From Yuukianura sp. NJ FZ-2021 (Eukaryota): 64,000 nt of DNA. Of the stretch, positions 10,701-46,998 are shown piece by piece. A program made the translations under genes and the position numbers. The DNA lies in the NCBI GenBank assembly GCA_046563655.1, contig CM102283.1, forward strand, positions 4,898,001 through 4,962,000, read 5' to 3'. The notes below the pieces were generated by a model that had not been told where the DNA came from, did no database searches, and saw nothing but the letters and a program-made list of their open reading frames with translations. Numbering within the stretch: position 1 is the first letter of the stretch; each line of letters starts with the position of its first letter.

Positions 10701-13492
10701 AGTTTTTGCAAAGTTTTGTATAGAAGTGATGAATATAAATTGGCTTGGGTGTTGGATGCCCTGGATGTGCTTTGTTCGCTTTAGTTTACTCCAAATCAGA
10801 TAACATGCAGGGGAAGCGCCACATTTTGAATTTCAAATTTGACTACTAAACGCTTTTCCTTTTCCATTTGCAGACTTCGTGTCTCAATGCCAAAATGTTT
10901 GTCATCATCGAAAAAAATGATCGAAAAAATCATTCAGAAGGACGTCCTGTCGAAGGAGAAGATGCTCAACGTCTCCGAAGTTTTCCGAATGCATGAAAAC
11001 GAACCTACTTCGTTCGTTTTCCTATCTACGGATGGTCAGCTCATCTGGAAAGACGAACTTGGGCTAATGAGCATGTACAAATCCACGGACTTTTGTATTG
11101 ACCAGTGAGTACATCACTAATGACAATTCTGCGGAAATTGCAGCTTCTGCGCAGTACTTTACAATGAAGCCGTTTAATTTTCTTGGGTTCTACGCAGGAT
11201 AAATGACACGGCGTTCATCGCGTTGACTTGTGAGCCACGGTGTAACGCCGAGCAGCCGTGCGTTCCCAAGTGCTGCAGTCCAGGGGACATTCTGGACACG
11301 GACAAATGGAGCTGCGTGTCAAGCGAAAAGGAGTGGACTCCGTCCCTTTACAACCAAAATGCTTTTGTTCCTACACAGTCCAATGCCGCTGACAACGCCC
11401 ATTACATCTACGGCATCCCAGAGTGCGACTCCTACTCGTTCACACCCTGGCAAAACTTGGCAGAAAAGTAACAGCAGAATTCTAAAATTAGAAATTAGGA
11501 AATTTATATTTCGCCTCATTTTGAAATTTACTGATTTCGAAATTTTGTGCTTCAAGAATGTACGTTCTCACAAACGGATCACTGATAACGGTTGCTCGAG
11601 GCAGAACAGTCGTCTATCCACCAAACACGTTTTGCGTAGATGGAGCTGTGGAACCCAACACGCATGCGCCAGACTCAGCTCCGTTGGATCCACAAGTCAA
11701 GTCTGGTGGTGGGACGAAATTGGATCAGGTTGCGGTCATATGCTATCCACCAATTGCTAACATTTCAAAAGAGGTAGGCAACTTTTCATTAAAAAGTAAG
11801 CGCTAATTTTTTCAAAAAGCAGCGTTTTCCTTAAAAAATAATTTCTGTATCATTTAGGATTGGCGATATGGCGTTTACGCCAAATGCGAACTCGTGTCTT
11901 CCCTCTTCCTGCTGCTTACAGCATTTGTATACTTGCTGTTATGGGAGTTTCAGAACATCCACGGATGGCTTCAGTTCGCATACGTCGTTTCCTGTTTCTT
12001 TTCCTTCACGTTCCTCGCAACAGTCCAGCTCTACACCAATCAGATCAACGACATCGATCAGAATCTCTGCGAATCAATGGGTACTAAAGAAGTGAATTTC
12101 GCTGGTTTATTTGGAAAGTCACACTTCCTTTGAAAAATTTCATCACTTTCTGTTTTTATTCCAGGCGCAATTATTCACTTTTCTTTTCTTGCCGCCTTTT
12201 TCTGGTTAACCTCAATGAACTTTGACCTCTGGTGGACCTTTAGGTGAGATTCAAACAAAAACAAATTTGTATTCAAGAGTTGGCGGATATTTCGAAACTG
12301 CATCACAAGCTGAGATAAAACCAAAGATAATTTTGTGTTTTCCTGTTTTCAATTTTTTCAGCGGATGCCGTCCTCTGCGTCCAAGTTCCAAAACTGGAGA
12401 CAAAAAACGATTCATAATCTTCGCCATCTTCTCGTGGGGATTTCCCGGAATCATCGCTGGCATTGGATTGGCTCTCGACTTCCTCTACGAGTACGTTGGC
12501 CAACAAAGAAAAAAAAATTTCAATGACAATGATTGTTTTTAACAGTTTTTTTTTCGTTTTCTTAGAGACGAACCAGATTCTGGAGTTGTGAGACCGCGAT
12601 TTGGAGAGCGAAAGTGTTACTTCTACGGAAGTGCAGAGCAACTCCCTTACTTTTACGGCCCTGTTGGCGTTCTTCTTCTCATCGATTTGATTTTCTTCAT
12701 CAACACGGTCTACTCTCTCCAGAAATTGCAGCAAGACACCAAATTTGCAACGAGGCAGAGCTCCAAGCAGGACAAGAAAAAGTTTCAGAAAACGTAATTT
12801 TATAAACGTGAAATTCACTTTCTAACACTGATTTGATTTTTTTTAGGTTTGTACTTTTCATGAAGATTTTCATTGTGATGGGCGTATTATGGATTTTCGA
12901 GGTCATCAGCTGGATTGTGGAGGTTTACAGTTCAAATGAACCGCTAAAAGACGCTTTCATTCCATTTGACATCATAAATGCCTTGCAAGGTCTCTGGATC
13001 TTCATCATTTTCACTTGCAAGCCAAACACATGCAAGCAGCTAGAAGGGAAATTCAAAAAGCTATCGTTGCTCTTAGAGCGCCAGCGCGGTAAATCCATCT
13101 CATTATATCAAATAGTAAATCTATATAAAAAAAAATCATTATTAGCATTTTCACCTTTTTCAGAACAAGATGCGCTGGAGATAGGAAGTCAAAGAAGCAA
13201 GTTTTGTCAGTCGTTTGGAAATCGGTTGACGCTTTGCGCATGTGCTCTTCTGCTTCCAATTGTCAATGCTTTTCGACGAATCTTCCACATTTGTGGTCAC
13301 AGAAAGAGATCTTCGATGGACAATAGGAGAGTTCGCTCCAACACAATCACAGTCACCTCTGGAACATTCGACAAAAGTCGGAAGTTTAGTGACTGTTCCA
13401 CAGCCTCGACGTATACCACAACAGATCCCAGCTCCACTTACGAAATGGAGTCAAAGTACAATCGAATCCACTCCATTAACAGTAGTACTTAG
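7794..13492 (+). CDS. Methuselah-like class B GPCR with two tandem Cys-rich ectodomain modules
   Basis: N-terminal signal peptide. Exons 7794-8149, 10874-11104, 11198-11467, 11557-11773, 11858-12080, 12165-12243, ~12362-12491, ~12567-12793 and 12847-13492 (tail splicing uncertain). Mth motifs: VNKCCPLGE..FCID, CVPKCCSPG..FCVDG, QNIHG, FFWLTSMNFDLWWTF, RPRFGERKCYF, YFYGP, KIFIVMGVLWIFE and NALQGLWIF. Confidence 0.9.
8833..9862 (+). mobile_element. Internally deleted IS630/Tc1/mariner-superfamily DNA transposon in intron 1 of the GPCR
   Basis: Perfect 35-bp TIRs (TAGTTCATCTATTTTAAGAAGGCGGGTTTGAAATT) flanked by TA on both sides. ORF 9266-9643 resembles a DDE_3 transposase N-terminus (VIRR...RTLDYLHKKL...RATLHKIM...LKFKY...DRPDIAAGRARYLRAIKQFR) and is truncated before the first catalytic Asp. 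Confidence 0.85.
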
Positions 13493-14159
13493 AAAATTTC
13501 CAGAAATAGATTTTTCTTTATATTCATATTCACTTTCCAACTTCCGATCGCTGATTTGTTCAAACCTGAACATAGCTCGACTCGTAGAACTTTTTCTATT
13601 GTTAAAACGTAGCATTTACCTTAAGACGTTCAAAAGCACAAAATAAAGTTGGTGCATTTTTTAAAAACAAAGTACCTGAACAAAATACCGCTACTAGCAT
13701 TTTTTTTTTCAAAAACCGAAGAAACTTTGAAATTGAATTGGCCGTAGTATGGAATAAAAAGTGGAAGGTGCGAAGGGATATGATGTTACGGAGTTACATA
13801 AAGTTCCTAATCGACTTATGTATTGAAAATTTTTAAAAAGCAAAAAAAAAATAAATTTTTTTCCCAAAAAGTCAAGGTCGCATTTCTGAATTGAAGTTAG
13901 TATTAAAAGGTAGACAATTGACGTTTCTTGAATCCATTTAATCAATCAATCAATCAATTTTTATTTGATTTGGCCTTTTGCCCTATCAATTACAAATCCT
14001 GCAGCTCGTTTAAGTTAAAGTAATAAATCAAATTAGCATAAGTCAAACACGTAGAAAAGGTAAAATAAGTAAGATGATGTAACTAATACAGAGTCCATTA
14101 TGAAATTTGGAGGATTTGATGAAGTGTACCATGGGGGAGAATTACCGGACTGCCCGGGT

Positions 14160-17100
14160 TCATCGGTCCAGCGTTGGCTCGAACATTGACAGCACTCTTT
14201 GATTTAATATGTGGAGGTTCTTGATAAATGTGAAGTCTTTGGAATGTGAACTGACCCAGACAATTGGACATTGGTGCGGTGGGATGTGCAGATGGTTTCG
14301 GTGTGTATTAGTCTGTGGACAGGCCCATAGAGCGTGGTAGTAAGACAATTGGTCCCCACAGAAACTGCAGTACTTTTCTTTGAACTGGCCGAGGTCAAGC
14401 CATTTTCGGTTGTGGTAGATCTGGTTCATGTTCAGTCGGATCTGAATGACTGTTCTGGTGAGGTAGGCTGGGAACCGTTTAGACAGTAATTCCTTCGCTG
14501 GGAAATCTTTCTCGAGGGTAGAGTAGTGTGGTATAGAACGGGACAGCGATGCCCTTCTTTTGTCTGAATCCCGGTAGAAGTTCGCAAGGTTCTTGATTAC
14601 TGTTTTTGTTTTTGCTCTGATGTCTTGAATGTTTCCACCATCATAGGCGCCCTCTTCCCCGATTGGAGTAAGGGCCGCTCTAAGCTGTAGGCACCAACTG
14701 TATTTTTGGTCAGGGCGGAGTGACGTAACTTTCCTTAGTTGTAGGTATGCGTTTTTGGTGAGGTCAGAACAGGATTTGGAGTGTAATTTTGCGAACAAGG
14801 ACCAGGCTCTTTTGACAATTTCGAATTCTAAAGGAAGAGACTCAGTTTCCAGCCGTATGAAGTACCTGGGAGTAGTGAACGGTAAGTGGAAAACTCGTTT
14901 GTAGTAGTTTTGTTGAACCGTTTCTATTAAGTTAGAGTGGGGTAAACCCCAGGTTTCACAGTTGTATAAGGCTGTGGATTTTACTAGTGAATTTAGTAGC
15001 ATTTTGGCCGTCCATAGGTCGATGTAAGCAGATTTCTTGAGTAAGCCAAAAACTGCTCCTTGTGCTGGAGTTCCTTTCTCTACTGCGGTCTTTGCAGTTT
15101 TTTGGAATGTGCCGTTAGATTGGAAGGTCACACCGAGGTACTTATATTCTGCCACTGTTTCTATTCGAGTTCCATTCCAAAAGAACAGGTCGTCTTTTCG
15201 TAGTCTCCCAGATCGACGGAATGGTACAACCTTTGTTTTTGTGAGGTTGACCTGAAGACCTCTGGCTTTGAAGACGTTGGAGGCGATTTTGATTTTCTCC
15301 TGAAGCAGCTCCTTGGACTGTGCTGTGATGACAAGGTCGTCAGCGTATAAAAGAACATGAATAATACGGGAGCCCAGAGCGTAGCCTTTGAGTAACGAAT
15401 TGGTAAACCTGTTTACGAGGTCTTCAATGAACAGATTGAAAAGGGTGGGACTGGCAGATTCACCTTGGAGCACCCCTTTCATTATTTTAATGGGGTCCGT
15501 GAGTCCTTCGCTGGTGTTAATTTGGGTAGTGGCGTTGTCATAAAGGGACTTGAATACTTTCAGAAATTTGGTTGAGACACCCATATTTCCTAGGACCTCC
15601 CAGAGGAGCGAGTGGTTTGGAGTATCAAAAGCCTGTGACAAGTCGACGAATGCGACATATAACTCCTTTTGTTTCAACATTTGGCATTGGATCATTGCCA
15701 TTAAAGTGAATATGTGGTCAGTGCATGATCTAGATTTTCTGAAGCCCGCTTGAAAATCTGAAATTTTGTTGTTGACATTTATCCAGTTGTTGAGTCTAGT
15801 GTTCAGCACTTTAGTAAACAGTTTTAGTATCGTATTCATCAACGATATTGGACGGTAATTTTGCGGCTGGTCTCTTGGTCCTTTTTTGTGTAATGGGAGT
15901 ATTTGAGTATTACACCAATGATTTGGCAGTATCCCGTTCTGTAGGATATTTTGGAAAAGAGTAACCAGGAATATTAGAAGCTTTGGGGTGGCTGCTTTCC
16001 ATAATTCATTCGGGATTCTGTCAGGACCTGTTGCCTTGCGTGCCTTCAACGACTTTGTCGCCATTCTTATCTCAATTGCTGTAATGTCACGATCTAGTAT
16101 TTCATTTTCTAAGAATGGTGTAAGTGGGAGTAGATGGTTCGGAATGTCACGGACTTTAAGCAGATCCTCGAAGTGTTTGAACCATGTATCCTTCGGAATT
16201 TTGTCTTGTGAGGTTGGTTGAGCTGTGAAGTATTTTACCGCCTTCCAGAAGTTTGCCGGGTGTTTTGATGAGTGGAGATGCGAGACAAAATTGGACAGGA
16301 ACAGAGATTTCTTGTTGACTAGTTGTTGTTTGAATAGTTTCTGGGCTTCTATGTAGCGTTGTGCACATGCCGCTCTATTCTCTTCGTTGCACCTTCTCAA
16401 CTTGCGGAGGGCGTTATTTTTCTTCCATTTCAAGGAGTTCAGCTCCGCGTCAAACCACTTAGGCTTTGGTCTTATTGGTTTTGGCTTCGACTTCTTGTGG
16501 TTACCTGTTATCTTCGCTGTTTCTAGGACTTTTTGTTGTAGTTGAAGGCTAGCTTCATTTGCATCCTTGGTGTCGTAATTCAGGGAAGTCTCAAGAAGTT
16601 TATAGAAGTCGTATTTTGCCATTTTTTCTGTGGGTATTGTTATCTTCTCTTGGGTTAGACCGTTGTGTTTCTGCGGTTGGTTCACCGTTTGCTGGAGTGA
16701 GACGAGCAGAGGGAAGTGGTCGGAGTGATGCCAGTCTAGTATTTTCAAGTCATTAACGTTGTCTCGCCAGTTCTGGGATGTAAGCACAAGGTCTACCACA
16801 CTGCACCCTGCGTTTGCTGGGTTTACCATTGTTATTTCCCCTTGTTCATCTCCTGTTATTGCTCCATTACAAATTGTAAGGTTGCACTCGGCAGCAACTG
16901 ATAGCAGGTTTCTCCCGTTTCCGTTTATCGACTTGTCCTTGCTGTTCCTTTTATACAATGGAGTGGTGTTTCTTTCTCCGGTTCTTGAGTTTAGGTCTCC
17001 TATTAGTAGTGCCGGTTTGTTCGTGAATTTCAGAGTTTCAAGTGTTTCGGTCACTAGTCTTTGGTTGGATTTGTCCGGAGGAATGTAGGCAAATAGCAGG

Positions 17101-17408
17101 AGAAATTGTGATGGGCGGTTGCGCACTGTTAGTAGTATTGAGTGCTCCGTTGTCTCTAGTAAAGTAATTTCTGGATCTATTGAGCTCTGCCATCCAAAAA
17201 TGAAACCCCCGTAAGGACGACCCCTGTCTTGTTTTTTGGCTAGGATTTGATGAACTGTGTATTGTTGCTGTAGTCTGAGGTTTTTATAATTTTCCCATTG
17301 CATTGATTCTGATAGGCAGAAAATAGAAGGTTGGAGTGTCAAGAATTCGTTCCAGAAAGTCGGTCCAAGGTTATTTACACTTTTTGCATTCAAATAGAAG
17401 ATTGTCAT
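14160..17408 (-). CDS. LINE ORF2: apurinic-like endonuclease + reverse transcriptase + C-terminal CCHC motif (1082 aa)
   Basis: APE motifs: YLN, CLSES, AYIPP, GDLNSR, VVDLVL, SDHFPL. RT motifs: KATGPD, NYRPISL, QAGFRKSRS, FVDLSQAFD, GVLQG, LLYADD, YKYLG. C-terminal CSFC...HALWAC. Confidence 0.97.
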   Translation of the reverse strand: MTIFYLNAKSVNNLGPTFWNEFLTLQPSIFCLSESMQWENYKNLRLQQQYTVHQILAKKQDRGRPYGGFIFGWQSSIDPEITLLETTEHSILLTVRNRPSQFLLLFAYIPPDKSNQRLVTETLETLKFTNKPALLIGDLNSRTGERNTTPLYKRNSKDKSINGNGRNLLSVAAECNLTICNGAITGDEQGEITMVNPANAGCSVVDLVLTSQNWRDNVNDLKILDWHHSDHFPLLVSLQQTVNQPQKHNGLTQEKITIPTEKMAKYDFYKLLETSLNYDTKDANEASLQLQQKVLETAKITGNHKKSKPKPIRPKPKWFDAELNSLKWKKNNALRKLRRCNEENRAACAQRYIEAQKLFKQQLVNKKSLFLSNFVSHLHSSKHPANFWKAVKYFTAQPTSQDKIPKDTWFKHFEDLLKVRDIPNHLLPLTPFLENEILDRDITAIEIRMATKSLKARKATGPDRIPNELWKAATPKLLIFLVTLFQNILQNGILPNHWCNTQILPLHKKGPRDQPQNYRPISLMNTILKLFTKVLNTRLNNWINVNNKISDFQAGFRKSRSCTDHIFTLMAMIQCQMLKQKELYVAFVDLSQAFDTPNHSLLWEVLGNMGVSTKFLKVFKSLYDNATTQINTSEGLTDPIKIMKGVLQGESASPTLFNLFIEDLVNRFTNSLLKGYALGSRIIHVLLYADDLVITAQSKELLQEKIKIASNVFKARGLQVNLTKTKVVPFRRSGRLRKDDLFFWNGTRIETVAEYKYLGVTFQSNGTFQKTAKTAVEKGTPAQGAVFGLLKKSAYIDLWTAKMLLNSLVKSTALYNCETWGLPHSNLIETVQQNYYKRVFHLPFTTPRYFIRLETESLPLEFEIVKRAWSLFAKLHSKSCSDLTKNAYLQLRKVTSLRPDQKYSWCLQLRAALTPIGEEGAYDGGNIQDIRAKTKTVIKNLANFYRDSDKRRASLSRSIPHYSTLEKDFPAKELLSKRFPAYLTRTVIQIRLNMNQIYHNRKWLDLGQFKEKYCSFCGDQLSYYHALWACPQTNTHRNHLHIPPHQCPIVWVSSHSKDFTFIKNLHILNQRVLSMFEPTLDR

Positions 17409-17483
17409 GTTGGTTAAAAATGTTTCGCTGCAGGATCCTGTACTTGTTTTATTTGGAAGGTTGTTGATAGGGCGGCCGGGTCC

Positions 17484-18245
17484 TCATTTCGGGGCAGGGA
17501 ATGAGCTTCGAGTGGCCGAAGCAAAGGTTCTGGGAATAGTAGGATTTGATGTTCCTGGCGCTAGAGTTCGGGATTCGGAAGCCCGTTGTCTTAATTCGCG
17601 ATTTTTTTGTCGTTCAAGTCTGGTTTCCACCGTAAGGTCTTCGGTGATGGAGTAAATGTCTTTGTTTTGTATGAACGTCTTCCGAAGCTGAAGAGCTCGC
17701 ATGCGTTGAGCAAATGTCGAAATTCGCACTTTAATTGGACGGGGCTTATCAGATGACGGGTTAAATTTTCCAATTCTGAATGCATCTTCTACGTTGACCG
17801 GAACATTGTAGTGGTTAAAAAAGTTGTTGGTGATGTTCATCGTGTTTTCATTAGTAGTTTCCGAAACTCCGTGGATGAGAATGTTGTTTCGTCTTAGTTC
17901 GTCTGTAAGGCGGGAGTTCATTTTTTTGAGTTGATCAATTTCGTTTTGTTGTTGTCCCGTTTTGGTTTGTAGCTCTTCAATTTGTTCCTGGTATTTCTCA
18001 AGTTTGAATTCGATGGAATCGCATCTCATGTCAATTTTTGTTTCAATTCTTGTTTCCAAGTTTGTAAACATTTTTGTCATTGATTCCAATAAATCGTCGT
18101 TCGAGTGATTAGATCGTTTTGAACTTGGCTCGATTCCAGCGTTTGGTTCCGAATCAGCAGCTCGTTTACTACCCTTATTTTGTGGGAGGAAAGGTAGGGT
18201 GGTTTGCGACATGTTCTGTGACACGGGAGAACGTGAGATTGGCAT
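17484..18245 (-). CDS. LINE ORF1 (coiled coil + RRM-like, L1/Transposase_22-type), 253 aa
   Basis: Heptad-rich coiled coil followed by RRNNILIHGVSE...AFRIGK...PRPIKVR...ITEDLT, typical of this ORF1 class. Lies directly upstream of ORF2. Confidence 0.9.
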   Translation of the reverse strand: MPISRSPVSQNMSQTTLPFLPQNKGSKRAADSEPNAGIEPSSKRSNHSNDDLLESMTKMFTNLETRIETKIDMRCDSIEFKLEKYQEQIEELQTKTGQQQNEIDQLKKMNSRLTDELRRNNILIHGVSETTNENTMNITNNFFNHYNVPVNVEDAFRIGKFNPSSDKPRPIKVRISTFAQRMRALQLRKTFIQNKDIYSITEDLTVETRLERQKNRELRQRASESRTLAPGTSNPTIPRTFASATRSSFPAPK

Positions 18246-18260
18246 CAGCTTTTTATTTTA

Positions 18261-18860
18261 GGTTACTCTACTGAGTTACCTCTTAGGTTACCCTACTGAG
18301 TTACCTTTGACCGTAGGTTACCCTACTGGATTACCTTAGGTTACTCTACTGAGTTACCTTTGACCGTAGGTTACCCTACTGGGTTACCTTAGGTTACTCT
18401 ACTGAGTTACGTTAGACCGTAGGTTACCCTACTGGGTTACCTTAGGTTACTCTACTGAGTTACCTCAGGCCGTAGGTTACCCTACTGGGTTACCTTAGGT
18501 TACTCTACTGAGTTACCTTAGGCCGTAGGTTACCCTACTGGGTTACCTTAGGTTACTCTACTGAGTTACCTTAGGCCGTAGGTTACCCTACTGGGTTACC
18601 TTAGGTTACTCTACTGAGTTACCTTAGGCCGTAGGTTACCCTACTGGGTTACCTTAGGTTACTCTACTGAGTTACCTTAGGCCGTAGGTTACCCTACTGG
18701 GTTACCTTAGGTTACTCTACTGAGTTACCTTAGGCCGTAGGTTACCCTACTGGGTTACCTTAGGTTACTCTACTGAGTTACCTTAGGTTACTCTACTGAG
18801 TTACCTTTGGCCGTAGGTTACCCTACTGTGTTACCTTGGGTTACTCTACTGAGTTACCTT
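18261..18860 (-). repeat. 53-bp tandem repeat (about 11 copies, two hairpin subunits each) in the LINE 5'UTR
   Basis: Unit on + strand: GGTTACTCTACTGAGTTACCTTAGGCCGTAGGTTACCCTACTGGGTTACCTTA. The period is 53 bp (for example 18551 to 18604). Confidence 0.95.
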
Positions 18861-19789
18861 GGGTAGGGAGGGAAATTGGCGTAGGGATAACGTAATTGAG
18901 TGAACTTGAATGACTTGGAGTTGAAGATCGGATGCTGCGATTACTGGATGTGTTCTGAATGGAAGTTGAACGTTGCTACAGTAGTATCTACTGCTGTTAG
19001 ACGATAACTGTTCTATTTTGAGTGTAGACGAGCAGTGTGGTAGTACTAATTCCTCTGTGCCTGTGCACTGTGCAATTAAGAGTCTTGCTGCTGAACGACG
19101 GTAGTGACTTGATGTGCACTTGGACTGTAGAAGGGTCGTCTCGTGTCACTGGACAATTAAAAGTATTGAAACAAATGATGGGTGTCGTAAGCCTTGGGTA
19201 GATTGTAATGCCCTTGGTTTGAAGTGTGTCCTGAGTCTCGTTCAGTGCTTGATTATGAAGTTATCGATGCCTTTGCCGTTTAGTAGTTGATTGTTATTGA
19301 TTACTGGTAGTCTGTTAGCCAGTGATAATTCGTTTGTCACGAGACACAAGAGTATTGCGTTACGTTGATTAATGTTTGTACTTGTCCACGGGAACGAATG
19401 GTCAGCTGATCGAAAAGTACTAAAAAATCCCACAATTACCTCCGTGGTACTGCCAAAAGTAGTATCAGCGTGTTCGTGAAGAGTTCCTCTGCTGAATTCC
19501 AGTTGATTCCAGTGACCAAAGTTAGTTAATTGGTGATTAAAAACGATTAATCAGGGAGCACCACACTATTTTGACTTTTCTCATGGTATTTTTGAAATAT
19601 ATCCGAATCCATTTAATAAATCCAGATTAGCCGTGCGGTTCGGAAATCCTTGTTTTCTTTACACTCCTTGAGCACAAAATCTCGTGTTGAATTTAGTGTG
19701 ACCTCTGTGGTATGAATGAGTCGTCATACCGTCCAGAAGCACACCGAGGACTCAGTGGAGCCTGTCTCGACTGTATGACGGACGGAACA

Positions 19790-20778
19790 CTGGGCTGACA
19801 TTTTGGTACACTTATGACGTCCAAACTTTAGGATAGCACCAAACTTAGGAACAGATAGGACAAACCAGATTTTCGTAAAGATAGGATCCCTGAACCTACT
19901 ATTAACACAGCTTATCGGATTTTAAAATATTGTTAAATAATTACTATTAACAAAAAATATTCCTATAAATAATTAAAAACTTATGATTAAATATAATTAT
20001 TGTATTATATAGTATGGTATAGTACATTAATGTATTAATTAATGCATATTAATTAATGTATATTGCACTATTACATTAGATATAAGTATAGTATATTGTT
20101 TTGAAGTCAAACTTTCACATAAATGTACATTTACATTATAAAATAAACGGTTGTAAACCGGTGTACGGAAGTAGCGAAAAAAAACGCCCCCCCCCTTGGG
20201 GGGATTGGTGGTGGGTTCGCCCCACTTCCCCCCGCGGGGATTGGGGGATGGGTTCCCCCTGCACCTTCCCGCCCTCCCTGGAAGAATGAGGGTGGGTCCC
20301 CCGGGGGAGTGGAGCTGAGTTCCTCCATGGGCAGTGAAGATGAGTTCCCTCCGGGGGAGTGGAAATGGGTTCCCCCCGAAAAAGTGGAGACGGGTTACCC
20401 GTGGGGGAGAGTGGAGATGGGTTCCCTCCAGGGGGTGGAGATGGGTTCCCCCCAGCGGAGTGGAGATGGGTTCCCCCGGGGGAAGTGGAGATGGGTTCTC
20501 CCCTCCGTGGTAATACGACGTTAAAATAAAAAAAAGTTGACCTTTGACCCGGATGCAGGTCACTTGGGGTCATGTGATGTACACAAAAGTTGCTGGTCTC
20601 GATGGGACGAACAGCTTTTGTAGAGGTCATTTTCCATGTTACCGGGGATTAAACCGATTGACCTTTGACCCGGAAGCAGTGGACCCACCGGGATGATATT
20701 CAATAGCGAACATCACCGGATCCCGGAAATGTTGAACCGTTTCCGAGATAATTGCCGGAGACGGCCAGACAGACAGAC

Positions 20779-20809
<31 letters not shown>

Positions 20810-21142
20810 CAGACAGACACACAGACGGACAGACAAACTAGGTCAAACCAATAAGTAGCTTTCGCTACTTAATAATTGTTAGGATTGAGTTAGGACGCGG
20901 AAAGACCGTCCCTAAAGATAGGAGGAATTTTGACAAAGATAGGAAATCATATCTTTTCCAAAATATGGGCGATCCTAAGTACCTATCTCCCATTGCCCAA
21001 CTCCAGACTTAGGACAGTCCTGGGATTCGTATCAAAATACGGCAACTTAGGAAATCTTAGAGGAGTCCCATCTTTTCTCCTAAATAGTTAGGATGGGCCT
21101 GACTTAGGACATCCTAACTTTCGTACAAAAATGTCAGCCCTG
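19790..21142. mobile_element. Non-autonomous TIR element (hAT-like CAGGG terminus) carrying a nested HINE
   Basis: Left CTGGGCTGACATTTTGGTAC versus reverse complement of right CAGGGCTGACATTTTTGTAC (18/20 match). Many subterminal TAGGA/TCCTA motifs. No TSD found. Confidence 0.6.
20140..20872 (-). mobile_element. Helentron-associated non-autonomous element (HINE / DINE-1-like)
   Basis: Minus-strand layout: TT, then subTIR AAGTAGCGAAA with a local inverted repeat (20853-20870), then a (GTCY)n microsatellite (20767-20835), a core with a G/C-rich VNTR, the 3' subTIR TTTCGCTACTT (20169-20179), the hairpin CGGTT-TAC-AACCG (20148-20160) and a T-run. Confidence 0.8.
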
Positions 21143-21392: not shown

Positions 21393-21492
21393 NNNNNNNN
21401 NNNNNNNNNNNNNNNNNNNNNNNNNNNNNNNNNNNNNNNNNNNNNNNNNNNNNNNNNNNNNNNNNNNNNNNNNNNNNNNNNNNNNNNNNNNN
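21393..21492. other. Assembly gap (100 N)
   Basis: Run of 100 N. True size and contiguity across it are unknown. Confidence 1.
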
Positions 21493-22954: not shown

Positions 22955-25900
22955 AAGCCTTATATCCCTTCCACGATGGTTCTGCGTCAGATGTTAGGTG
23001 AAAAATTGCTTTACACTGGTTTCAAAAAACCGTGTAATAATCATAAAGGTCAATGTATTACTACCAAGTCTCTATAGCGTAAAAGTTGAAAATTCTTCAA
23101 AGGCCTTACATCCATTCCACGATGATTCTGCATCAGATGTTAGGTGAAAAATTGCTTTACACTGGTTTCAAAAAACAGTGTGAAAATCATAAAATGTCAA
23201 TGTATAACTAGCAAGTCCGTATAGCGTAAAAGTTGAAAATTCTTCAAAAGCCTTATATCCCTTCTACGATGATTCTGCGTCAGATGTTAGGTGAAAAATT
23301 GCTTTGCACTGGTTTCAAAAAACCGTGTAAAAATCATAAAATGTCAATGTATTACTACCAAGTCCCTATAGCGTAAAAGTTGAAAATTCTTCAAAAGCCA
23401 TATATCCCTTCCACGATGGTTCTGCGTCAGATGTTAGGTGAAAAATTGCTTTGCACTGGTATCAAAAAACCGTGTGAAAATCATAAAACGGCAATGTATT
23501 ACTACCAAGTCTCTATAGCGTAAAAGTTGAAAATTCTTCAAAGGCCTTATATCCCTTCAACGATGATTCTGGGGTCAGATGTTAGGTGAAAAATTTCTTT
23601 AAATTTATTTTACATACACTGGTTTCAAAAAACCGTGTGTAATTATAAAATGTCAATGTATAACTAACAAGTCCGTATAGCGTAAAAGTTGAAAATTCTT
23701 CAAAAGCCTTATATCCCTTCCACGATGGTTCTGCGTCAGATGTTAGGTGAAAAATTGCTTTACACTGGTTTCAAAAAACAGTGTGAAAATCACAAAATGT
23801 CAATGTATAACTAGCAAGTCCGTATAGCGTAAAAGTTGAAAATTCTTCAAAAGCCTTATATCCCTTCTACGATGATTCTGCGTCAGATGTTAGGTGAAAA
23901 ATTGCTTTGCACTGGTTTCAAAAAACCGTGTAAAAATCATAAAATGTCAATGTATTACTACCAAGTCCCTATAGCGTAAAAGTTGAAAATTCTTCAAAAG
24001 CCATATATCCCTTCCACGATGGTTCTGCGTCAGATGTTAGGTGAAAAATTGCTTTGCACTGGTATCAAAAAACCGTGTGAAAATCATAAAACGGCAATGT
24101 ATTACTACCAAGTCTCTATAGCGTAAAAGTTGAAAATTCTTCAAAGGCCTTATATCCCTTCAACGATGATTCTGGGGTCAGATGTTAGGTGAAAAATTTC
24201 TTTAAATTTATTTTACATACACTGGTTTCAAAAAACCGTGTGTAATTATAAAATGTCAATGTATAACTAACAAGTCCGTATAGCGTAAAAGTTGAAAATT
24301 CTTCAAAAGCCTTATATCCCTTCCACGATGGTTCTGCGTCAGATGTTAGGTGAAAAATTGCTTTACACTGGTTTCAAAAAACCGTGTAAAAATCATAAAG
24401 GTCAATGTATTACTACCAAGTCTCTATAGCGTAAAAGTTGAAAATTCTTCAAAGGCCTTACATCCATTCCACGATGATTCTGCATCAGATGTTAGGTGAA
24501 AAATTGCTTTACACTGGTTTCAAAAAACAGTGTGAAAATCATAAAATGTCAATGTATAACTAGCAAGTCCGTATAGCGTAAAAGTTGAAAATTCTTCAAA
24601 AGCCTTATATCCCTTCTACGATGATTCTGCGTCAGATGTTAGGTGAAAAATTGCTTTGCACTGGTTTCAAAAAACCGTGTAAAAATCATAAAATGTCAAT
24701 GTATTACTACCAAGTCCCTATAGCGTACAAGTTGAAAATTCTTCAAAAGCCATATATCCCTTCCACGATGGTTCTGCGTCAGATGTTAGGTGAAAAATTG
24801 CTTTGCACTGGTATCAAAAAACCGTGTGAAAATCATAAAACGGCAATGTATTACTACCAAGTCTCTATAGCGTAAAAGTTGAAAATTCTTCAAAGGCCTT
24901 ATATCCCTTCAACGATGATTCTGGGGTCAGATGTTAGGTGAAAAATTTCTTTAAATTTATTTTACATACACTGGTTTCAAAAAACCGTGTGTAATTATAA
25001 AATGTCAATGTATAACTAACAAGTCCGTATAGCGTAAAAGTTGAAAATTCTTCAAAAGCCTTATATCCCTTCCACGATGGTTCTGCGTCAGATGTTAGGT
25101 GAAAAATTGCTTTACACTGGTTTCAAAAAACCGTGTAAAAATCATAAAATGTCAATGTATTACTACCAAGTCTCTATAGCGTAAAAGTTGAAAATTCTTC
25201 AAAGGCTTTACATCCATTCCACGATGATTCTGCGTCAGATGTTAGGTGAAAAATTGCTTTACACTGGTTTCAAAAAACAGTGTGAAAATCATAAAATGTC
25301 AATGTATAACTAGCAGGTCCGTATAGCGTAAAAGTTGAAAATTCTTCGAAAGCCATATATCCCTTCCACCATGATTCTGCGTCAGATGCTACATGACAAA
25401 TTGCTTTACGTTGGTTTCAAAAAACCGTATGAAAATCATAAAATGTCAATGTATTACTACCAAGTCCCTATAGCGTAAAAGTTGAAAATTCTTCAAAAGC
25501 CTTATATCCCTTCCACGATGATTCTGCGTCAGATGCTACATGACAAAATGCTTTACGTTGGTTTCAAAAAACCGTATGAAAATCATAAAATGTCAATGTA
25601 TTACTACCAAGTCCCTATAGCGTAAAAGTTGAAAATTCTTCAAAAGCCTTATATCCCTTCTACGATGGTTCTGCGTCAGATGTTAGGTGAAAAATTGCTT
25701 TGCACTGGTATCAAAAAACCGTGTGAAAATCATAAAACGGCAATGTATTACTACCAAGTCTCTATAGCGTAAAAGTTGAAAATTCTTCAAAGGCCTTATA
25801 TCCCTTCAACGATGATTCTGGGGTCAGATGTTAGGTGACAAATTGCTTTAAATTTATTTTACATACACTGGTTTCAAAAAACCGTGTGTAATTATAAAAT

Positions 25901-28900
25901 GTCAATGTATAACGAGCAAGTCCGTATAGCGTAAAAGTTGAAAATTCTTCAAAAGCCTTATATCCCTTCCACGATGGTTCTGCGTCAGATGTTATGTGAA
26001 AAATTGCTTTACACTTTTTTTCAAAAAACCGTGCAAAAATCATAAACTGTCAATGTATTACTACCAAGTCCCTATAGCGTAAAAGTTGAAAATTCTTCAA
26101 AGGCCTTATATCCCTTCGACGATGATTCTGCGTCAGATGTTAGGTGACAAATTGCTTTAAATTTATTTTACATACACTGGTTTCAAAAAACCGTGTGTAA
26201 TTATAAAATGTCAATGTATAACTAGCAAGTCCTTATAGCGTAAAAGTTGAAAATTCTTCGAAAGCCATATATCCCTTCCACCATGATTCTGCGTCAGATG
26301 CTACATGACAAATTGCTTTACGTTGGTTTCAAAAAACCGTATGAAAATCATAAAATGTCAATGTATTACTACCAAGTCCCTATAGCGTAAAAGTTGAAAA
26401 TTCTTCAAAAGCCTTATATCCCTTCCACGATGATTCTGCGTCAGATGTTATGTGAAAAATTGCTTTACACTGGTTTCAAAAAACCGTGCAAAAATCATAA
26501 ACTGTCAATGTATAACTAACAAGTCCGTATAGCGTAAAAGTTGAAAATTCTTCAAAAGCCTTATATCCCTTCCACGATGGTTCTGCGTCAGATGTTAGGT
26601 GAAAAATTGCTTTACACTGGTTTCAAAAAACCGTGTAAAAATTATAAAATGTCAATGTATTACTACCAAGCCTCTATAGCGTAAAAGTTGAAAATTCTTC
26701 AAAGGCTTTACATCCATTCCACGATGATTCTGCGTCAGATGTTATGTGAAAAACTGCTTTACACTGGTTTCAAAAAACCGTGCAAAAATCATAAACTGTC
26801 AATGTATAACTAACAAGTCCGTATAGCGTAAAAGTTGAAAATTCTTCAAAAGCCTTATATCCCTTCCACGATGGTTCTGCGTCAGATGTTAGGTGAAAAA
26901 TTGCTTTGCACTGGTATCAAAAAACCGTGTGAAAATCATAAAACGGCAATGTATTACTACCAAGTCTCTATAGCGTAAAAGTTGAAAATTCTTCAAAGGC
27001 CTTATATCCCTTCAACGATGATTCTGGGGTCAGATGTTAGGTGACAAATTGCTTTAAATTTATTTTACATACACTGGTTTCAAAAAACCGTGTGTAATTA
27101 TAAAATGTCAATGTATAACGAGCAAGTCCGTATAGCGTAAAAGTTGAAAATTCTTCAAAAGCCTTATATCCCTTCCACGATGGTTCTGCGTCAGATGTTA
27201 TGTGAAAAATTGCTTTACACTGGTTTCAAAAAACCGTGCAAAAATCATAAACTGTCAATGTATTACTACCAAGTCCCTATAGCGTAAAAGTTGAAAATTC
27301 TTCAAAGGCCTTATATCCCTTCGACGATGATTCTGCGTCAGATGTTAGGTGACAAATTGCTTTAAATTTATTTTACATACACTGGTTTCAAAAAACCGTG
27401 TGTAATTATAAAATGTCAATGTATAACTAGCAAGTCCTTATAGCGTAAAAGTTGAAAATTCTTCGAAAGCCATATATCCCTTCCACCATGATTCTGCGTC
27501 AGATGCTACATGACAAATTGCTTTACGTTGGTTTCAAAAAACCGTATGAAAATCATAAAATGTCAATGTATTACTACCAAGTCCCTATAGCGTAAAAGTT
27601 GAAAATTCTTCAAAAGCCTTATATCCCTTCCACGATGATTCTGCGTCAGATGTTATGTGAAAAATTGCTTTACACTGGTTTCAAAAAACCGTGCAAAAAT
27701 CATAAACTGTCAATGTATAACTAACAAGTCCGTATAGCGTAAAAGTTGAAAATTCTTCAAAAGCCTTATATCCCTTCCACGATGGTTCTGCGTCAGATGT
27801 TAGGTGAAAAATTGCTTTACACTGGTTTCAAAAAACCGTGTAAAAATTATAAAATGTCAATGTATTACTACCAAGCCTCTATAGCGTAAAAGTTGAAAAT
27901 TCTTCAAAGGCTTTACATCCATTCCACGATGATTCTGCGTCAGATGTTATGTGAAAAACTGCTTTACACTGGTTTCAAAAAACCGTGCAAAAATCATAAA
28001 CTGTCAATGTATAACTAACAAGTCCGTATAGCGTAAAAGTTGAAAATTCTTCAAAAGCCTTATATCCCTTCCACGATGGTTCTGCGTCAGATGTTAGGTG
28101 AAAAATTGCTTTACACTGGTTTCAAAAAACCGTGTAAAAATCATAAAATGTCAATGTATTACTACCAAGTCTCTATAGCGTAAAAGTTGAAAATTCTTCA
28201 AAGGCTTTACATCCATTCCACGATGATTCTGCGTCAGATGTTAGGTGAAAAATTGCTTTACACTGGTTTCAAAAAACAGTCTGAAAATCATAAAATGTCA
28301 ATGTATAACTAGCAAGTCCGTATAGCGTAAAAGTTGAAAATTCTTCGAAAGCCATATATCCCTTCCACCATGATTCTGCGTCAGATGCTACATGACAAAT
28401 TGCTTTACGTTGGTTTCAAAAAACCGTATGAAAATCATAAAATGTCAATGTATTACTACCAAGTCCCTATAGCGTAAAAGTTGAAAATTCTTCAAAAGCC
28501 TTATATCACTTCCACGATGATTCTGCGTCAGATGTTATGTGAAAAATTGCTTTACACTGGTTTCAAAAAACCGTGCAAAAATCATAAACTGTCAATGTAT
28601 TACTACCAAGTCCCTATAGCGTAAAAGTTGAAAACTCTTCAAAGGCCTTATATCCCTTCGACGATGATTCTGCGTCAGATGTTAGGTGACAAATTGCTTT
28701 AAATTTATTTTACATACACTGGTTTCAAAAAACCGTGTGTAATTATAAAATGTCAATGTATAACTAGCAAGTCCGTATAGCGTAAAAGTTTAAAGTTCTT
28801 CGAAAGCCTTATATCCCTTCCACGATGATTCTGCGTCAGATGTTATGTGAAAAATTGCTTTACACTGGTTTCAAAAAACCGTGCAAAAATCATAAACTGT

Positions 28901-31900
28901 CAATGTATAACTAACAAGTCCGTATAGCGTAAAAGTTGAAAATTCTTCAAAAGCCTTATATCCCTTCCACGATGGTTCTGCGTCAGATGTTAGGTGAAAA
29001 ATTGCTTTACACTGGTTTCAAAAAACCGTGTAAAAATCATAAAATGTCAATGTATTACTACCAAGTCTCTATAGCGTAAAAGTTGAAAATTCTTCAAAGG
29101 CTTTACATCCATTCCACGATGATTCTGCGTCAGATGTTAGGTGAAAAATTGCTTTACACTGGTTTCAAAAAACAGTGTGAAAATCATAAAATGTCAATGT
29201 ATAACTAGCAAGTCCGTATAGCGTAAAAGTTGAAAATTCTTCGAAAGCCATATATCCCTTCCACCATGATTCTGCGTCAGATGCTACATGACAAATTGCT
29301 TTACGTTGGTTTCAAAAAACCGTATGAAAATCATAAAATGTCAATGTATTACTACCAAGTCCCTATAGCGTAAAAGTTGAAAATTCTTCAAAAGCCTTAT
29401 ATCACTTCCACGATGATTCTGCGTCAGATGTTATGTGAAAAATTGCTTTACACTGGTTTCAAAAAACCGTGCAAAAATCATAAACTGTCAATGTATTACT
29501 ACCAAGTCCCTATAGCGTAAAAGTTGAAAACTCTTCAAAGGCCTTATATCCCTTCGACGATGATTCTGCGTCAGATGTTAGGTGACAAATTGCTTTAAAT
29601 TTATTTTACATACACTGGTTTCAAAAAACCGTGTGTAATTATAAAATGTCAATGTATAACTAGCAAGTCCGTATAGCGTAAAAGTTTAAAGTTCTTCGAA
29701 AGCCTTATATCCCTTCCACGATGATTCTGCGTCAGATGTTATGTGAAAAATTGCTTTACACTGGTTTCAAAAAACCGTGCAAAAATCATAAACTGTCAAT
29801 GTATAACTAACAAGTCCGTATAGCGTAAAAGTTGAAAATTCTTCAAAAGCCTTATATCCCTTCCACGATGGTTCTGCGTCAGATGTTAGGTGAAAAATTG
29901 CTTTACACTGGTTTCAAAAAACCGTGTAAAAATCATAAAATGTCAATGTATTACTACCAAGTCTCTATAGCGTAAAAGTTGAAAATTCTTCAAAGGCTTT
30001 ACATCCATTCCACGATGATTCTGCGTCAGATGTTAGGTGAAAAATTGCTTTACACTGGTTTCAAAAAACAGTGTGAAAATCATAAAATGTCAATGTATAA
30101 CTAGCAAGTCCGTATAGCGTAAAAGTTGAAAATTCTTCGAAAGCCATATATCCCTTCCACCATGATTCTGCGTCAGATGCTACATGACAAATTGCTTTAC
30201 GTTGGTTTCAAAAAACCGTATGAAAATCATAAAATGTCAATGTATTACTACCAAGTCCCTATAGCGTAAAAGTTGAAAATTCTTCAAAAGCCTTATATCC
30301 CTTCCACGATGATTCTGCGTCAGATGCTACATGACAAAATGCTTTACGTTGGTTTCAAAAAACCGTATGAAAATCATAAAATGTCAATGTATTACTACCA
30401 AGTCCCTATAGCGTAAAAGTTGAAAATTCTTCAAAAGCCTTATATCCCTTCTACGATGGTTCTGCGTCAGATGTTAGGTGAAAAATTGCTTTGCACTGGT
30501 ATCAAAAAACCGTGTGAAAATCATAAAACGGCAATGTATTACTACCAAGTCTCTATAGCGTAAAAGTTGAAAATTCTTCAAAGGCCTTATATCCCTTCAA
30601 CGATGATTCTGGGGTCAGATGTTAGGTGAAAAATTTCTTTAAATTTATTTTACATACACTGGTTTCAAAAAACCGTGTGTAATTATAAAATGTCAATGTA
30701 TAACTAACAAGTCCGTATAGCGTAAAAGTTGAAAATTCTTCAAAAGCCTTATATCCCTTCCACGATGGTTCTGCGTCAGATGTTAGGTGAAAAATTGCTT
30801 TACACTGCTTTCAAAAAACCGTGTAAAAATCATAAAGGTCAATGTATTACTACCAAGTCTCTATAGCGTAAAAGTTGAAAATTCTTCAAAGGCCTTACAT
30901 CCATTCCACGATGATTCTGCGTCAGATGTTAGGTGAAAAATTGCTTTACACTGGTTTCAAAAAACAGTGTGAAAATCATAAAATGTCAATGTATAACTAG
31001 CAAGTCCGTATAGCGTAAAAGTTGAAAATTCTTCGAAAGCCATATATCCCTTCCACCATGATTCTGCGTCAGATGCTACATGACAAATTGCTTTACGTTG
31101 GTTTCAAAAAACCGTATGAAAATCATAAAATGTCAATGTATTACTACCAAGTCCCTATAGCGTAAAAGTTGAAAATTCTTCAAAAGCCTTATATCCCTTC
31201 CACGATGATTCTGCGTCAAATGTTATGTGAAAAATTGCTTTACACTGGTTTCAAAAAACCGTGCAAAAATCATAAACTGTCAATGTATAACTAACAAGTC
31301 CCTATAGCGTAAAAGTTGAAAATTCTTCAAAGGCCTTATATCCCTTCGACGATGATTCCGAGTCAGATGTTAGGTGACAAATTGCTTTAAATTTATTTTA
31401 CATACACTGGTTTCAAAAAACCGTGTGTAATTATAAAATGTCAATGTATAACGAGCAAGTCCGTATAGCGTAAAAGTTGAAAATTCTTCAAAAGCCTTAT
31501 ATCCCTTCCACGATGGTTCTGCGTCAGATGTTATGTGAAAAATTGCTTTACACTGGTTTCAAAAAACCGTGCAAAAATCATAAACTGTCAATGTATTACT
31601 ACCAATCCCTATAGCGTAAAAGTTGAAAATTCTTCAAAGGCCTTATATCCCTTCGACGATGATTCTGCGTCAGATGTTAGGTGACAAATTGCTTTAAATT
31701 TATTTTACATACACTGGTTTCAAAAAACCGTGTGTAATTATAAAATGTCAATGTATAACTAGCAAGTCCTTATAGCGTAAAAGTTGAAAATTCTTCGAAA
31801 GCCATATATCCCTTCCACCATGATTCTGCGTCAGATGCTACATGACAAATTGCTTTACGTTGGTTTCAAAAAACCGTATGAAAATCATAAAATGTCAATG

Positions 31901-34900: not shown

Positions 34901-36280
34901 ATAGCGTAAAAGTTGAAAATTCTTCGAAAGCCATATATCCCTTCCACCATGATTCTGCGTCAGATGCTACATGACAAATTGCATTACGTTGGTTTCAAAA
35001 AACCGTATGAAAATCATAAAATGTCAATGTATTACTACCAAGTCCCTATAGCGTAAAAGTTGAAAATTCTTCAAAAGCCTTATATCCCTTCCACGATGAT
35101 TCTGCGTCAAATGTTATGTGAAAAATTGCTTTACACTGGTTTCAAAAAACCGTGCAAAAATCATAAACTGTCAATGTATTACTACCAAGTCCCTATAGCG
35201 TAAAAGTTGAAAATTCTTCAAAGGCCTTATATCCCTTCGACGATGATTCTGCGTCAAATGTTATGTGAAAAATTGCTTTACACTGGTTTCAAAAAACCGT
35301 GCAAAAATCATAAACTGTCAATGTATTACTACCAAGTCCCTATAGCGTAAAAGTTGAAAATTCTTCAAAGGCCTTATATCCCTTCGACGATGATTCTGCG
35401 TCAGATGTTAGGTGACAAATTGCTTTAAATTTATTTTACATACACTGGTTTCAAAAAACCGTGTGTAATTATAAAATGTCAATGTATAACGAGCAAGTCC
35501 GTATAGCGTAAAAGTTGAAAATTCTTCAAAAGCCTTATATCCCTTCCACGATGGTTCTGCGTCAGATGTTAGGTGAAAAATTGCTTTACACTGGTTTCAA
35601 AAAACCGTGTAAAAATCATAAAATGTCAATGTATTACTACCAAGTCTCTATAGCGTAAAGGTTGAAAATTCTTCAAAGGCCTTATATCCCTTCAACGATG
35701 ATTCTGCGTCAGATGTTAGATGACAAATTGCTTTAAATTTATTTTACATACACTGGTTTCAAAAAACCGTGTGTAATTATAAAATGTCAATGTATAACTA
35801 GCAAGTCCGTATAGCGTAAAAGTTGAAAATTCTTCGAAAGCCATATATCCCTTCCACCATGATTCTGCGTCAGATGCTACATGACAAATTGCTTTACGTT
35901 GGTTTCAAAAAACCGTATGAAAATCATAAAATGTCAATGTATTACTACCAAGTCCCTATTGCGTAAAAGTTGAAAATTCTTCAAAAGCCTTATATCCCTT
36001 CCACGATGATTCTGCGTCAGATGTTATGTGAAAAATTGCTTTACACTGGTTTCAAAAAACCGTGCAAAAATCATAAACTGTCAATGTATTACTACCAAGT
36101 CCCTATAGCGTAAAAGTTGAAAATTCTTCAAAGGCCTTATATCCCTTCAACGATGATTCTGGGGTCAGATGTTAGGTGAAAAATTTCTGTAAATTTATTT
36201 TACATACACTGGTTTCAAAAAACCGTGTGTAATTATAAAATGTCAATGTATAACGAGCAAGTCCGTATAGCGTAAAAGTT
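22955..36280. repeat. Satellite array, 147-bp monomer (161/162-bp long variants), about 89 monomers, with higher-order repeats
   Basis: The anchor AAAAGTTGAAAATTCTT recurs at 23081, 23228, 23375 and 23522 (147 spacing), then 23684 (162). Diagnostic variants recur at spacings of about 603, 749, 896-897 and 1206 bp. Confidence 0.98.
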
Positions 36281-45858: not shown

Positions 45859-46998
45859 TCATGAGATGTAAACTCGCGTGTATGTCCTGACCGTCTTCCG
45901 GCATAGAGGACAACGGTTGTCGCTTCTCACCAATTCGTGGCAGCAGTCTCTAAAAATTACCAAAATAACGTTATAACGTATTACAACGGCATATAAAACC
46001 AAGAAATGCTTACTTGCAGATACAGATGTGATTGCACGGAGTGGCTAAATAGGTAACAGGATTCTCGAAGCAAACGACACATATACCGCTAGCGTTTCTT
46101 GGAGCGTCGGGCTCCATTCGCTTAAAGGTGTCATTGGAACTCAAGCCGTGGTCCCGGCTCGCGTTAATTTGTGCCCGATGGCGGTGAGACGAAAACAGAG
46201 ATGTAGCGAAATGATGACAGAATGTAAGTACTCTGCGACTCCATTGGAAGCTGGCTGCAAATAACTGCCGAAGAGGAAAGCGACGAAATACAATATAGGC
46301 GATTATCACTATCGCCAAACCGGTGTAAGACGATAGCGTTATTGACGAAGACAACTTCTGTGGCAGTGTGAGGATAACGTATAAGAAGCCCTTGATGGTG
46401 CTGAATAGGTAGAGCGGCGTTGAAATCAGATTGATCCAGGCGCTGAGCAAGGCACTCGTGATGAACTTACAAAATGATAAAAAGGAATCACCGATTAGAG
46501 AGAGCGTGAGAGTAATAGCGACACCGACTTGCTCCGGAAGAATGATAAGTGAAGTAATAGATGTGGTTATTAAGTCGAAACATGACTTTAGCGCAAACGC
46601 CACTGTGGTCCACACGTACTGGACGAAGGAGATTGCGTCTGCGAATGTAATCACGAATGCTGTAAATAGGAATTAAATACTAAATTTGGTGTACATTAAC
46701 GCTGCTATTTGAGTTTAAATAAATGACCGTTACTAGCCTTACCATCTATAATATGTCCAATTGCATAATAAATCAAGAATCCAGTTTCTACTATCCCAAC
46801 AACTGTTTGAAGGCAGAATTCGGCGTAATATCCAACTGCAGTGAGCACGTGGTAGAAAAGTAACACAACGTCCACAATGTTGAATGTTAACCATTTTCCA
46901 GCGACGTAGCTTACACCAAGCAAAAATTCCAATGTTCCCATTACCCAAACTATGAAACTTTGGGCGTCGTAGATTATGTCTAAGTCTAAGTCCAGCAT
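45859..46998 (-). CDS. RNF26: Multi-pass membrane RING E3 ubiquitin ligase, RNF26-like
   Basis: Exons 46998-46743, 46659-46014 and 45949-45859. Long hydrophobic N-terminal region, then CVVCFENPVTYLATPCNHICICKDCCHELVRSDNRCPLCRKTVRTYTRVYIS*. Confidence 0.8.

Follow-up and report, generated by a model that had tools for sequence, protein, structure and literature searches.

A tandem array of predicted AGUA-capped hairpins next to ORF1 of a young LINE, possibly a tolerated minisatellite

The host LINE and its leader

The window, by which we mean the whole 64-kb stretch of DNA that was analysed, carries on its minus strand a LINE with two open reading frames, a short 3' UTR and a long leader, and within that leader an array of 23 short quasi-palindromes (Table 1). 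The borders of the element were set by a perfect 13-bp target-site duplication, the sole word of at least 10 nt common to 13800-14100 and 18860-20300. As the duplication bounds both ends, the span of the element is taken to be 13943-19604.

Table 1 Features of the LINE and its hairpin array, listed from the 5' to the 3' end of the element
Feature	Position	Strand	Basis
Target-site duplication, 5' copy, 13 bp	19605..19617		Shared-word comparison of flanks
LINE, full length, 5662 bp	13943-19604	minus	Target-site duplication borders
Non-repetitive upstream part of leader, 746 nt, one AUG	18859..19604	minus	ATG count, alignment
Hairpin array, 23 x 20-nt quasi-palindromes	18261..18858	minus	Pattern count, TRF, layout
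Hairpin h2, C7>A, breaks one pair (predicted)	18816-18835	minus	Layout and fold
Hairpin h18, G1>C, breaks one pair (predicted)	18392-18411	minus	Layout and fold
Hairpin h21, C6>T, U-G on sense RNA (predicted)	18316-18335	minus	Sense -5.7, antisense -3.2 kcal/mol
Hairpin h22, B left arm and A right arm, U-G on sense RNA (predicted)	18286-18305	minus	Sense -5.3, antisense -2.2 kcal/mol
A-rich linker UAAAAUAAAAAGCUG, last hairpin to ORF1 AUG, 15 nt	18246..18260	minus	Sequence
ORF1, 253 aa, L1-type ORF1p by profile: coiled coil, RRM, C-terminal domain	17484..18245	minus	Profile versus PDB
ORF2, 1082 aa, ATG at 17408, apurinic-type endonuclease and reverse transcriptase	14160..17408	minus	Pfam, PDB
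3' UTR with short terminal (TTGA)n tail	13943..14159	minus	Sequence
Target-site duplication, 3' copy, 13 bp, directly past (TTGA)n tail	13930..13942		Shared-word comparison

The ORF2 frame stays open as far upstream as 17483, and only one UGA separates it from ORF1, with which it shares its frame. Pfam searches of ORF2 returned RVT_1 (2.8e-38) and Exo_endo_phos_2 (1.3e-8), and residues 25-735 matched human L1 ORF2p (8sxt, E=4.8e-33). None of its 53 matches, which include arthropod and vertebrate proteins, exceeded 33% identity. ORF1 required a profile for its assignment. As a single sequence it gave only a weak match to human L1 ORF1p (2ykp, E=0.03), and Pfam searches with ORF1, its C-terminal half and 40 relatives returned no ORF1 family, only coiled-coil-type chance families. 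A single-sequence AlphaFold model had a mean pLDDT of 62.4, with the coiled coil alone confident. There were 527 relatives at E values up to 0.001; ORF1 and the top 40 of the 150 relatives listed were combined into a profile, which was searched against PDB. This profile matched 2ykp at E=3e-19 across the coiled coil, RRM and CTD, together with mouse ORF1 (2ldy, 4.3e-10) and 2w7a (2.2e-7). Because the profile matches both 2ykp and 2ldy, ORF1 is classed by homology as an L1-type ORF1p.

Given the perfect target-site duplication and the open ORF1 and ORF2, this LINE copy is, as judged from its sequence, young, apparently intact and full length, of the APE+RT type, with the array inside the element. 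The Pfam and PDB matches and the target-site duplication thus bear out the first-pass annotation, which had placed the array on the transcribed strand of a LINE beside ORF1. The protein collections searched held no close relative of the LINE family to which this young, intact element belongs. Self-BLAST of the LINE against the 64-kb window gave 29 matches, all within the element, and no further copy of it. A PGM3 exon of the host genome was also found, and its best matches were insect proteins at 55% identity, which makes the host an animal, probably an arthropod or some other invertebrate.

The leader is 1359 nt long, which is a minimum length because the copy could be 5'-truncated. It contains a single AUG, at position 21, the start of a 15-codon uORF. 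In the 746 nt 5' of the array one ATG was found versus 7.0±2.1 in 5000 dinucleotide-preserving shuffles (P(<=1)=0.0022). The opposite strand of the same 746 nt gave a count of 13 (CAT), and 746 nt of flank outside the element gave 9 ATG. Since the depletion is specific to the sense strand, the leader, array included, is probably transcribed on the minus strand and scanned. Such depletion is what would be expected if selection favored scanning to the ORF1 AUG, and the near absence of AUG over 1.36 kb speaks for a scanning process that passes through a very long, structured leader. Note that the absence of ATG from the array itself carries no weight, because 39% of shuffled 53-mers lack ATG, as does the 53-mer unit of the array.

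Layout and predicted folding of the array

A search of the 64-kb window for GGTAACYCAGTAGRGTAACC allowing up to three mismatches gave 23 matches, every one of them on the minus strand and within 18261-18858. Twenty of these had no mismatch and the other three had one, whereas the chance expectation was 0.01 matches and none of 100 shuffles reached 23. The pattern thus found no array units in the window outside 18261-18858. TRF reported a period of 53 bp (9.9 copies, 97% matches, 18259-18787), and on the minus strand this higher-order unit reads B(20)-taa-A(20)-tacggcctaa. Exact B, GGTAACTCAGTAGAGTAACC (T7/A14), accounts for 11 of the 23 hairpins and exact A, GGTAACCCAGTAGGGTAACC (C7/G14), for 8, leaving four variants that are neither. 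Alternation of A and B is broken twice, once where h3 and h4 are both B and once at the 3' end, where h22 and h23 are out of register. The building block of the 20-nt quasi-palindrome is the self-complementary heptamer GGTAACC, and each 53-bp unit can be seen in the sequence to hold one CpG.

The array occupies positions 747-1344 of the leader. With the end of its last hairpin at 18261 and the ORF1 ATG at 18245, 15 nt lie between the two; the sole AATAAA of the leader falls within this linker, starting at 18257, 4 nt past the last hairpin. On the sense strand the three frames of the array contain 30 stop codons in 199, 29 in 199 and 28 in 198, with a longest open run of 12 codons. The borders of the array are sharp, and decayed copies are absent beside it. 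In the 202 nt upstream, the best local alignment to the unit scored 14 versus a null mean of 13.6 (P=0.47), and the 746-nt upstream part of the leader as a whole is without significant similarity to the repeat unit. A search for the unit through the LINE with up to six mismatches added only one chance-level 20-mer, at 19501-19482. No array was found in bacterial and archaeal genome contigs, where three loci, all in Actinomycetota MAGs, gave one match each; this is chance level by a rough estimate, in which a handful was expected.

A and B have the same predicted fold, (((.((((....)))).))), with one A-A mismatch in the stem and an AGUA loop, and they differ solely at positions 7 and 14, which pair with one another (C-G in A, U-A in B). 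The AGUA loop is present in the predicted fold of all 23 units, and in the folds predicted for the whole array, minimum-energy and centroid alike, the row of hairpins prevails. These results agree with the description in the first-pass annotation of about 23 AGUA-capped hairpins directly upstream of ORF1, made of two alternating 20-mers in a 53-bp unit, with a common mismatched stem, two mutually pairing differences, a gap of 15 nt to the AUG and a wealth of UAA and UAG. Its reading of the four variants also held for the predicted stems. One pair is broken in h18 and another in h2, and the remaining two variants, h21 and h22, form U-G pairs on the RNA strand and have weaker antisense stems (Table 1).

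Folding energies were computed for both strands. The sense strand of the array gave -256.6 kcal/mol (z -8.0) and the antisense strand -270.7 kcal/mol (z -6.9). Single units behaved likewise, with -8.3 versus -9.1 kcal/mol for A and -6.2 versus -7.0 kcal/mol for B (sense versus antisense), and as single-stranded DNA the same hairpins were predicted for both strands. The sense strand is thus without a folding advantage in these predictions, h21 and h22 excepted. An Rfam scan of 13000-21000 at E values up to 1 gave two weak matches elsewhere and none in the array.

Tests for selection on pairing

The hairpins had been called covarying, and this description was not supported. The covariation test used the six distinct rows of the 23-copy alignment, which are repeats of one locus only. 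Of its seven pairs, four are invariant, one has a one-sided change, one varies only by an unpaired cell and one is doubly changed. The covariation score was 0.162 versus 0.115±0.033 in shuffled alignments; 90 of 500 shuffles reached that score and 187 of 500 reached the count of covarying pairs. Covariation in the array is therefore not significant. The compensated A/B pair is one evolutionary event that was then amplified, and a single compensated pair copied 23 times should not be taken for covariation. That the A/B differences land on one complementary pair has a chance of about 0.012-0.022 by simple counting, a suggestive value but one obtained post hoc. Note that a DNA palindrome would require the same compensated change. 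An argument from the U-G variants for pairing on the RNA strand is likewise not supported. There are two stem transitions, both sense-compatible, and as half of all such transitions would be, the chance is 0.25.

Variation within the array is confined to its edges. No differences were seen among hairpins h5-h15 or among their spacers, and the 13 variant sites all fall in h1-h4 and h15-h23. By position, variants were found at 0 of 92 loop sites, 0 of 46 sites of the A-A mismatch and 4 of 322 paired sites. Conservation is thus not specific to pairing, because the loops and the mismatch are as invariant as the paired positions. The hairpin 20-mers as a whole vary less than the spacers (4 of 460 versus 9 of 136 sites, Fisher p=0.0004). 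Since shared variants may be inherited, they were also counted as single events, which gave 4 versus 5-6 and p=0.012-0.033. The lower variation of the hairpins may point to constraint acting on the 20-mer, or else the commoner unit may have been homogenised more strongly. This lower variation is the only residual signal of constraint, and it does not tell RNA-level from DNA-level constraint.

Origin, competing readings and known systems

Our preferred reading, to which we give about an even chance (roughly 0.5), is that of a young minisatellite with a quasi-palindromic unit that is tolerated in a transcribed LINE leader. On this default reading the array simply joins the lineage-specific repeat tracts of other LINE leaders. 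LINE 5' UTRs are described as turning over fast and as often containing tandem duplications or long stretches of low complexity (PMC5381506), and for that reason a repeat tract in such a leader is ordinary in itself. Head-to-tail units, a near-identical core and edge variants, all properties of a minisatellite, were found here. A uniform core with edge variants is typical of concerted evolution, and it is commonly seen in tandem arrays that unequal exchange has homogenised.

The 53-bp unit is a dimer of the 20-nt quasi-palindrome, and it would have been amplified and kept uniform by slippage or unequal exchange, either during DNA replication or during reverse transcription. The compensated A/B pair could have arisen without selection, via template switching within the quasi-palindrome. 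A single template-switch event is able to build or mend a stem and to introduce compensatory changes (PMC8794818). With just one AUG in the 1359-nt leader, ribosomes probably reach ORF1 by cap-dependent scanning. For the RNA of the array, folding predicts about 23 weak local hairpins (-6 to -8 kcal/mol each), and the AUG-free array would be no hindrance to scanning and may be carried as a tolerated passenger. Neutrality of the array is here a default assumption.

Several observations count against the minisatellite reading. An intact and recently mobile LINE retains a 600-nt repeat beside its start codon, in a leader with signs of selection against AUGs. Decayed flanking copies, which are expected under slow growth in place, are not present. 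The transitions in h21 and h22 would preserve pairing on the sense RNA only. Finally, the A/B differences fall on one complementary pair and the hairpins vary less than the spacers.

A rival reading is a multivalent RNA element, in which the 23 leader hairpins would offer repeated binding sites to the ORF1p of the element or to some RNA-binding protein of the host. Such a platform, which we regard as unlikely, would aid cis-preferential RNP assembly, localisation or start-site selection at the AUG 15 nt downstream. It agrees with a leader that AUG depletion indicates is read on the sense strand, and with minimum-energy and centroid folds in which nearly every unit is a predicted hairpin. The compensated pair, the two variants with U-G on the sense strand only and the lower variation of hairpins than of spacers are also in its favor, and an invariant loop and mismatch are what would be expected of a sequence-specific protein site. 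Repeated structured motifs are used as packaging signals by ssRNA viruses (PMC8206606). However, recent amplification explains the invariance equally well, the covariation is not significant, the antisense strand folds as well or better, a pair is broken in two of the four variants and the array has no match in Rfam. Moreover, L1-type ORF1p, the class to which this ORF1 is assigned, binds single-stranded nucleic acid with little sequence specificity. The more specific proposal that each AGUA-capped stem is bound by a host factor or by the element's own proteins, giving cis preference or initiation at the adjacent AUG, seems doubtful, more so than either the general RNA-level reading or the DNA-level one discussed below. 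If the hairpins were bound or required, a retrotransposon RNA would here be under the control of a multivalent hairpin array, of which natural cases are rare, with implications for how LINE proteins recognize the RNA that encodes them.

Somewhat less probable than an RNA element in general is a set of DNA-level regulatory repeats, in which the palindromic 20-mers or the motifs in them would act as a homotypic cluster of transcription-factor sites or as repeated initiator-like cores, forming a downstream enhancer or an internal promoter. The compensated change preserves the symmetry of a DNA palindrome no less than the pairing of an RNA stem, the strands are equivalent, and the greater conservation of hairpin units than of spacers fits DNA sites as well. 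The array holds 32 GGTAAC and 31 GTAACC motifs at spacings of 10, 13 or 17 bp. TCAGT, which is the arthropod initiator core, occurs 13 times, across the stem-loop junction of the T-type hairpins (B and h22). The tandem monomers of mouse and rat L1 carry transcription signals (PMC5381506; PMC9022269). Against a promoter, the target-site duplication shows that the transcript from which this copy was made began 746 nt or more 5' of the array, and the array was therefore not its start site. In addition, the U-G variants are mismatches in a palindrome, and the 5'-terminal position, unit size and tether that characterize L1 monomers are not those found here.

An array of motifs resembling 5' splice sites, which would recruit U1 snRNP and either suppress premature cleavage and polyadenylation or mark the RNA for retention or silencing, is improbable. 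Its candidate targets would be the AAUAAA 4 nt past the array and the A-rich ORFs. The metazoan 5' splice-site consensus is MAG/GTRAGT, and the 5' arm of the hairpin with the preceding AA gives AAG/GUAAC, which agrees at 7-8 of 9 positions. Of the 28 sense-strand sites in the LINE that match at least 7 of 9 positions, 23 belong to the array (22 within the array coordinates plus one at leader position 745, the start of the first hairpin), and the sole AATAAA of the leader comes after the last hairpin. However, these matches amount to one observation, not 23, because they are by-products of one repeated unit; position +5 is C rather than G, and the motif is partly buried in the predicted stem. 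The TCAGT and AAG/GTAAC motifs alike are by-products of a single repeated unit and are no evidence for function.

Processing by an RNase III of the Rnt1p type, set by AGNN tetraloops, is very improbable, for although the predicted AGUA loop fits AGNN, only four Watson-Crick pairs separate the loop from the A-A mismatch, tetraloop-guided selection has been described for Saccharomyces Rnt1p (PMC4334505), and the host is an animal, as seen from the PGM3 exon and from the arthropod and vertebrate relatives of the LINE.

Several known systems can be set beside the array. The yeast Rnt1p substrates, which the first-pass annotation had invoked, share with the array a loop that fits AGNN (predicted here). 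The analogy fails on the stem, which is too short, and on the host. Budding yeast Rnt1p requires the first five base pairs by the loop and prefers pairing over seven, with an NGNN loop (PMC4334505).

The analogy to mouse L1 monomers made in the same annotation also broke down. Here, as in mouse and rat L1, tandem repeats lie within the 5' UTR of an element with an L1-type ORF1p and an APE+RT ORF2. The rodent monomers, with a length of about 200 bp in mouse and about 650 bp in rat, are 5'-terminal, carry a CpG island and transcription signals, and are linked to ORF1 through a tether of about 250 bp (PMC5381506). In contrast, 746 nt of unique leader precede the present array, its unit is 53 bp with one CpG, and its linker to ORF1 is 15 nt rather than about 250 bp. 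Also alike are the 5' UTR repeats of horse, elephant, opossum and hyrax LINEs and the tract of T-rich short repeats of about 840 bp in cow, which are lineage-specific, lie in long, fast-evolving leaders and have no assigned function (PMC5381506). Unlike those tracts, the present array has a quasi-palindromic unit, from which a regular series of hairpins is predicted, and its host is an invertebrate LINE with an ORF2 at most 33% identical to anything found. A description of such an array in a LINE leader was not found in the open-access literature searched.

Tandem repeats internal to transposable elements can act like minisatellites or seed satellite DNA, as in the case of Tetris in Drosophila virilis, which is alike in being a short, high-identity array within a mobile element (PMC4079207). 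Such cases differ in concerning other element classes, and here the unit has not expanded outside the element within the 64-kb window. The stems attributed to template switching are alike in being quasi-palindromes with a matched change in both arms (PMC8794818). That mechanism was inferred from RNA-gene phylogenies (PMC8794818), whereas here it is a candidate origin only.

If the RNA-level reading were true, the array would be comparable to viral repeated packaging signals or to engineered MS2 arrays. Engineered 24x MS2 hairpin arrays present many copies of one small hairpin on one RNA. The packaging motifs of ssRNA viruses likewise provide many copies of one small hairpin per RNA (PMC8206606), the counterpart in this LINE being a row of predicted hairpins.

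AUG content of the LINE leader

Just one AUG is found in the whole 1359-nt leader that precedes the ORF1 AUG of the full-length LINE. In the 746 nt of leader lying upstream of the hairpin array, this single ATG compares with 7.0±2.1 in shuffled sequences (P=0.0022). The same 746-nt stretch contains 13 CAT triplets, each an ATG when read from the other strand. Nine ATGs occur in the 746 nt of flank taken outside the LINE for comparison.

Features of the LINE and of the surrounding sequence
Feature	Positions	Strand	Analysis
LINE leader, 1359 nt	18246-19604	minus	ATG counts vs shuffles
Array plus linker to ORF1, signal-like motifs	18246-18860	minus	motif counts
ORF1-ORF2 junction	17381-17520	minus	reading-frame analysis
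25-bp tandem repeat	20293-20498		
Run of 100 N	21393-21492		
147-bp satellite	22955-36185		
202-211-bp satellite	59439-63973		
RING finger frame	46010-46672	minus	Pfam search
PGM3/AGM1 exons	48451-50494	minus	Pfam search, protein matches
408-aa and 346-aa frames	56328-58595	minus	Pfam search

Signal-like motifs and the ORF1-ORF2 junction

With the AA that precedes it, the start of each array hairpin reads AAG/GTAAC, which is similar to a 5' splice site, and 23 of the 28 5' splice-site-like sites of the LINE (at least seven of nine positions of the MAG/GTRAGT consensus) fall in the array. The array also holds 13 copies of TCAGT. The sole AATAAA of the leader is at 18257, 4 nt past the array.

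The ORF1 stop codon is UGA (17486-17484) and is in the same frame as ORF2, whose reading frame stays open from 17483 onwards and reaches the ORF2 AUG 25 codons further on, at 17408. Fusion of ORF1 to ORF2 through stop-codon readthrough is conceivable, as is reinitiation.

Repeats and other coding regions in the window

The G/C-rich 25-bp tandem repeat (about eight copies, 75% matches) lies upstream of the LINE, approximately 700 nt from its 5' end, and produces spurious long ORFs on both strands. The N run is presumably an assembly gap. The 147-bp satellite extends over 13 kb, with about 88 copies of its unit (87% matches) and a uniform GC content of 34%, and the other satellite, of about 19 copies (95% matches), reaches the window end.

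The 408-aa and 346-aa stop-to-stop frames are contiguous, with one stop between them, and neither gave a match in the Pfam search; the pair may represent a gene that lacks annotation or the ORF of a mobile element, interrupted once. A C3HC4 RING finger begins at the end of the open frame at 46010-46672 (Pfam E=3e-5, under the curated cut-off), and this frame probably represents one exon of a gene for a membrane RING protein. The PGM3/AGM1 (phosphoacetylglucosamine mutase) exons match the Pfam domains AMG1_III and PGM_PMM_I, and among proteins they are most similar to insect sequences, with 55% identity.
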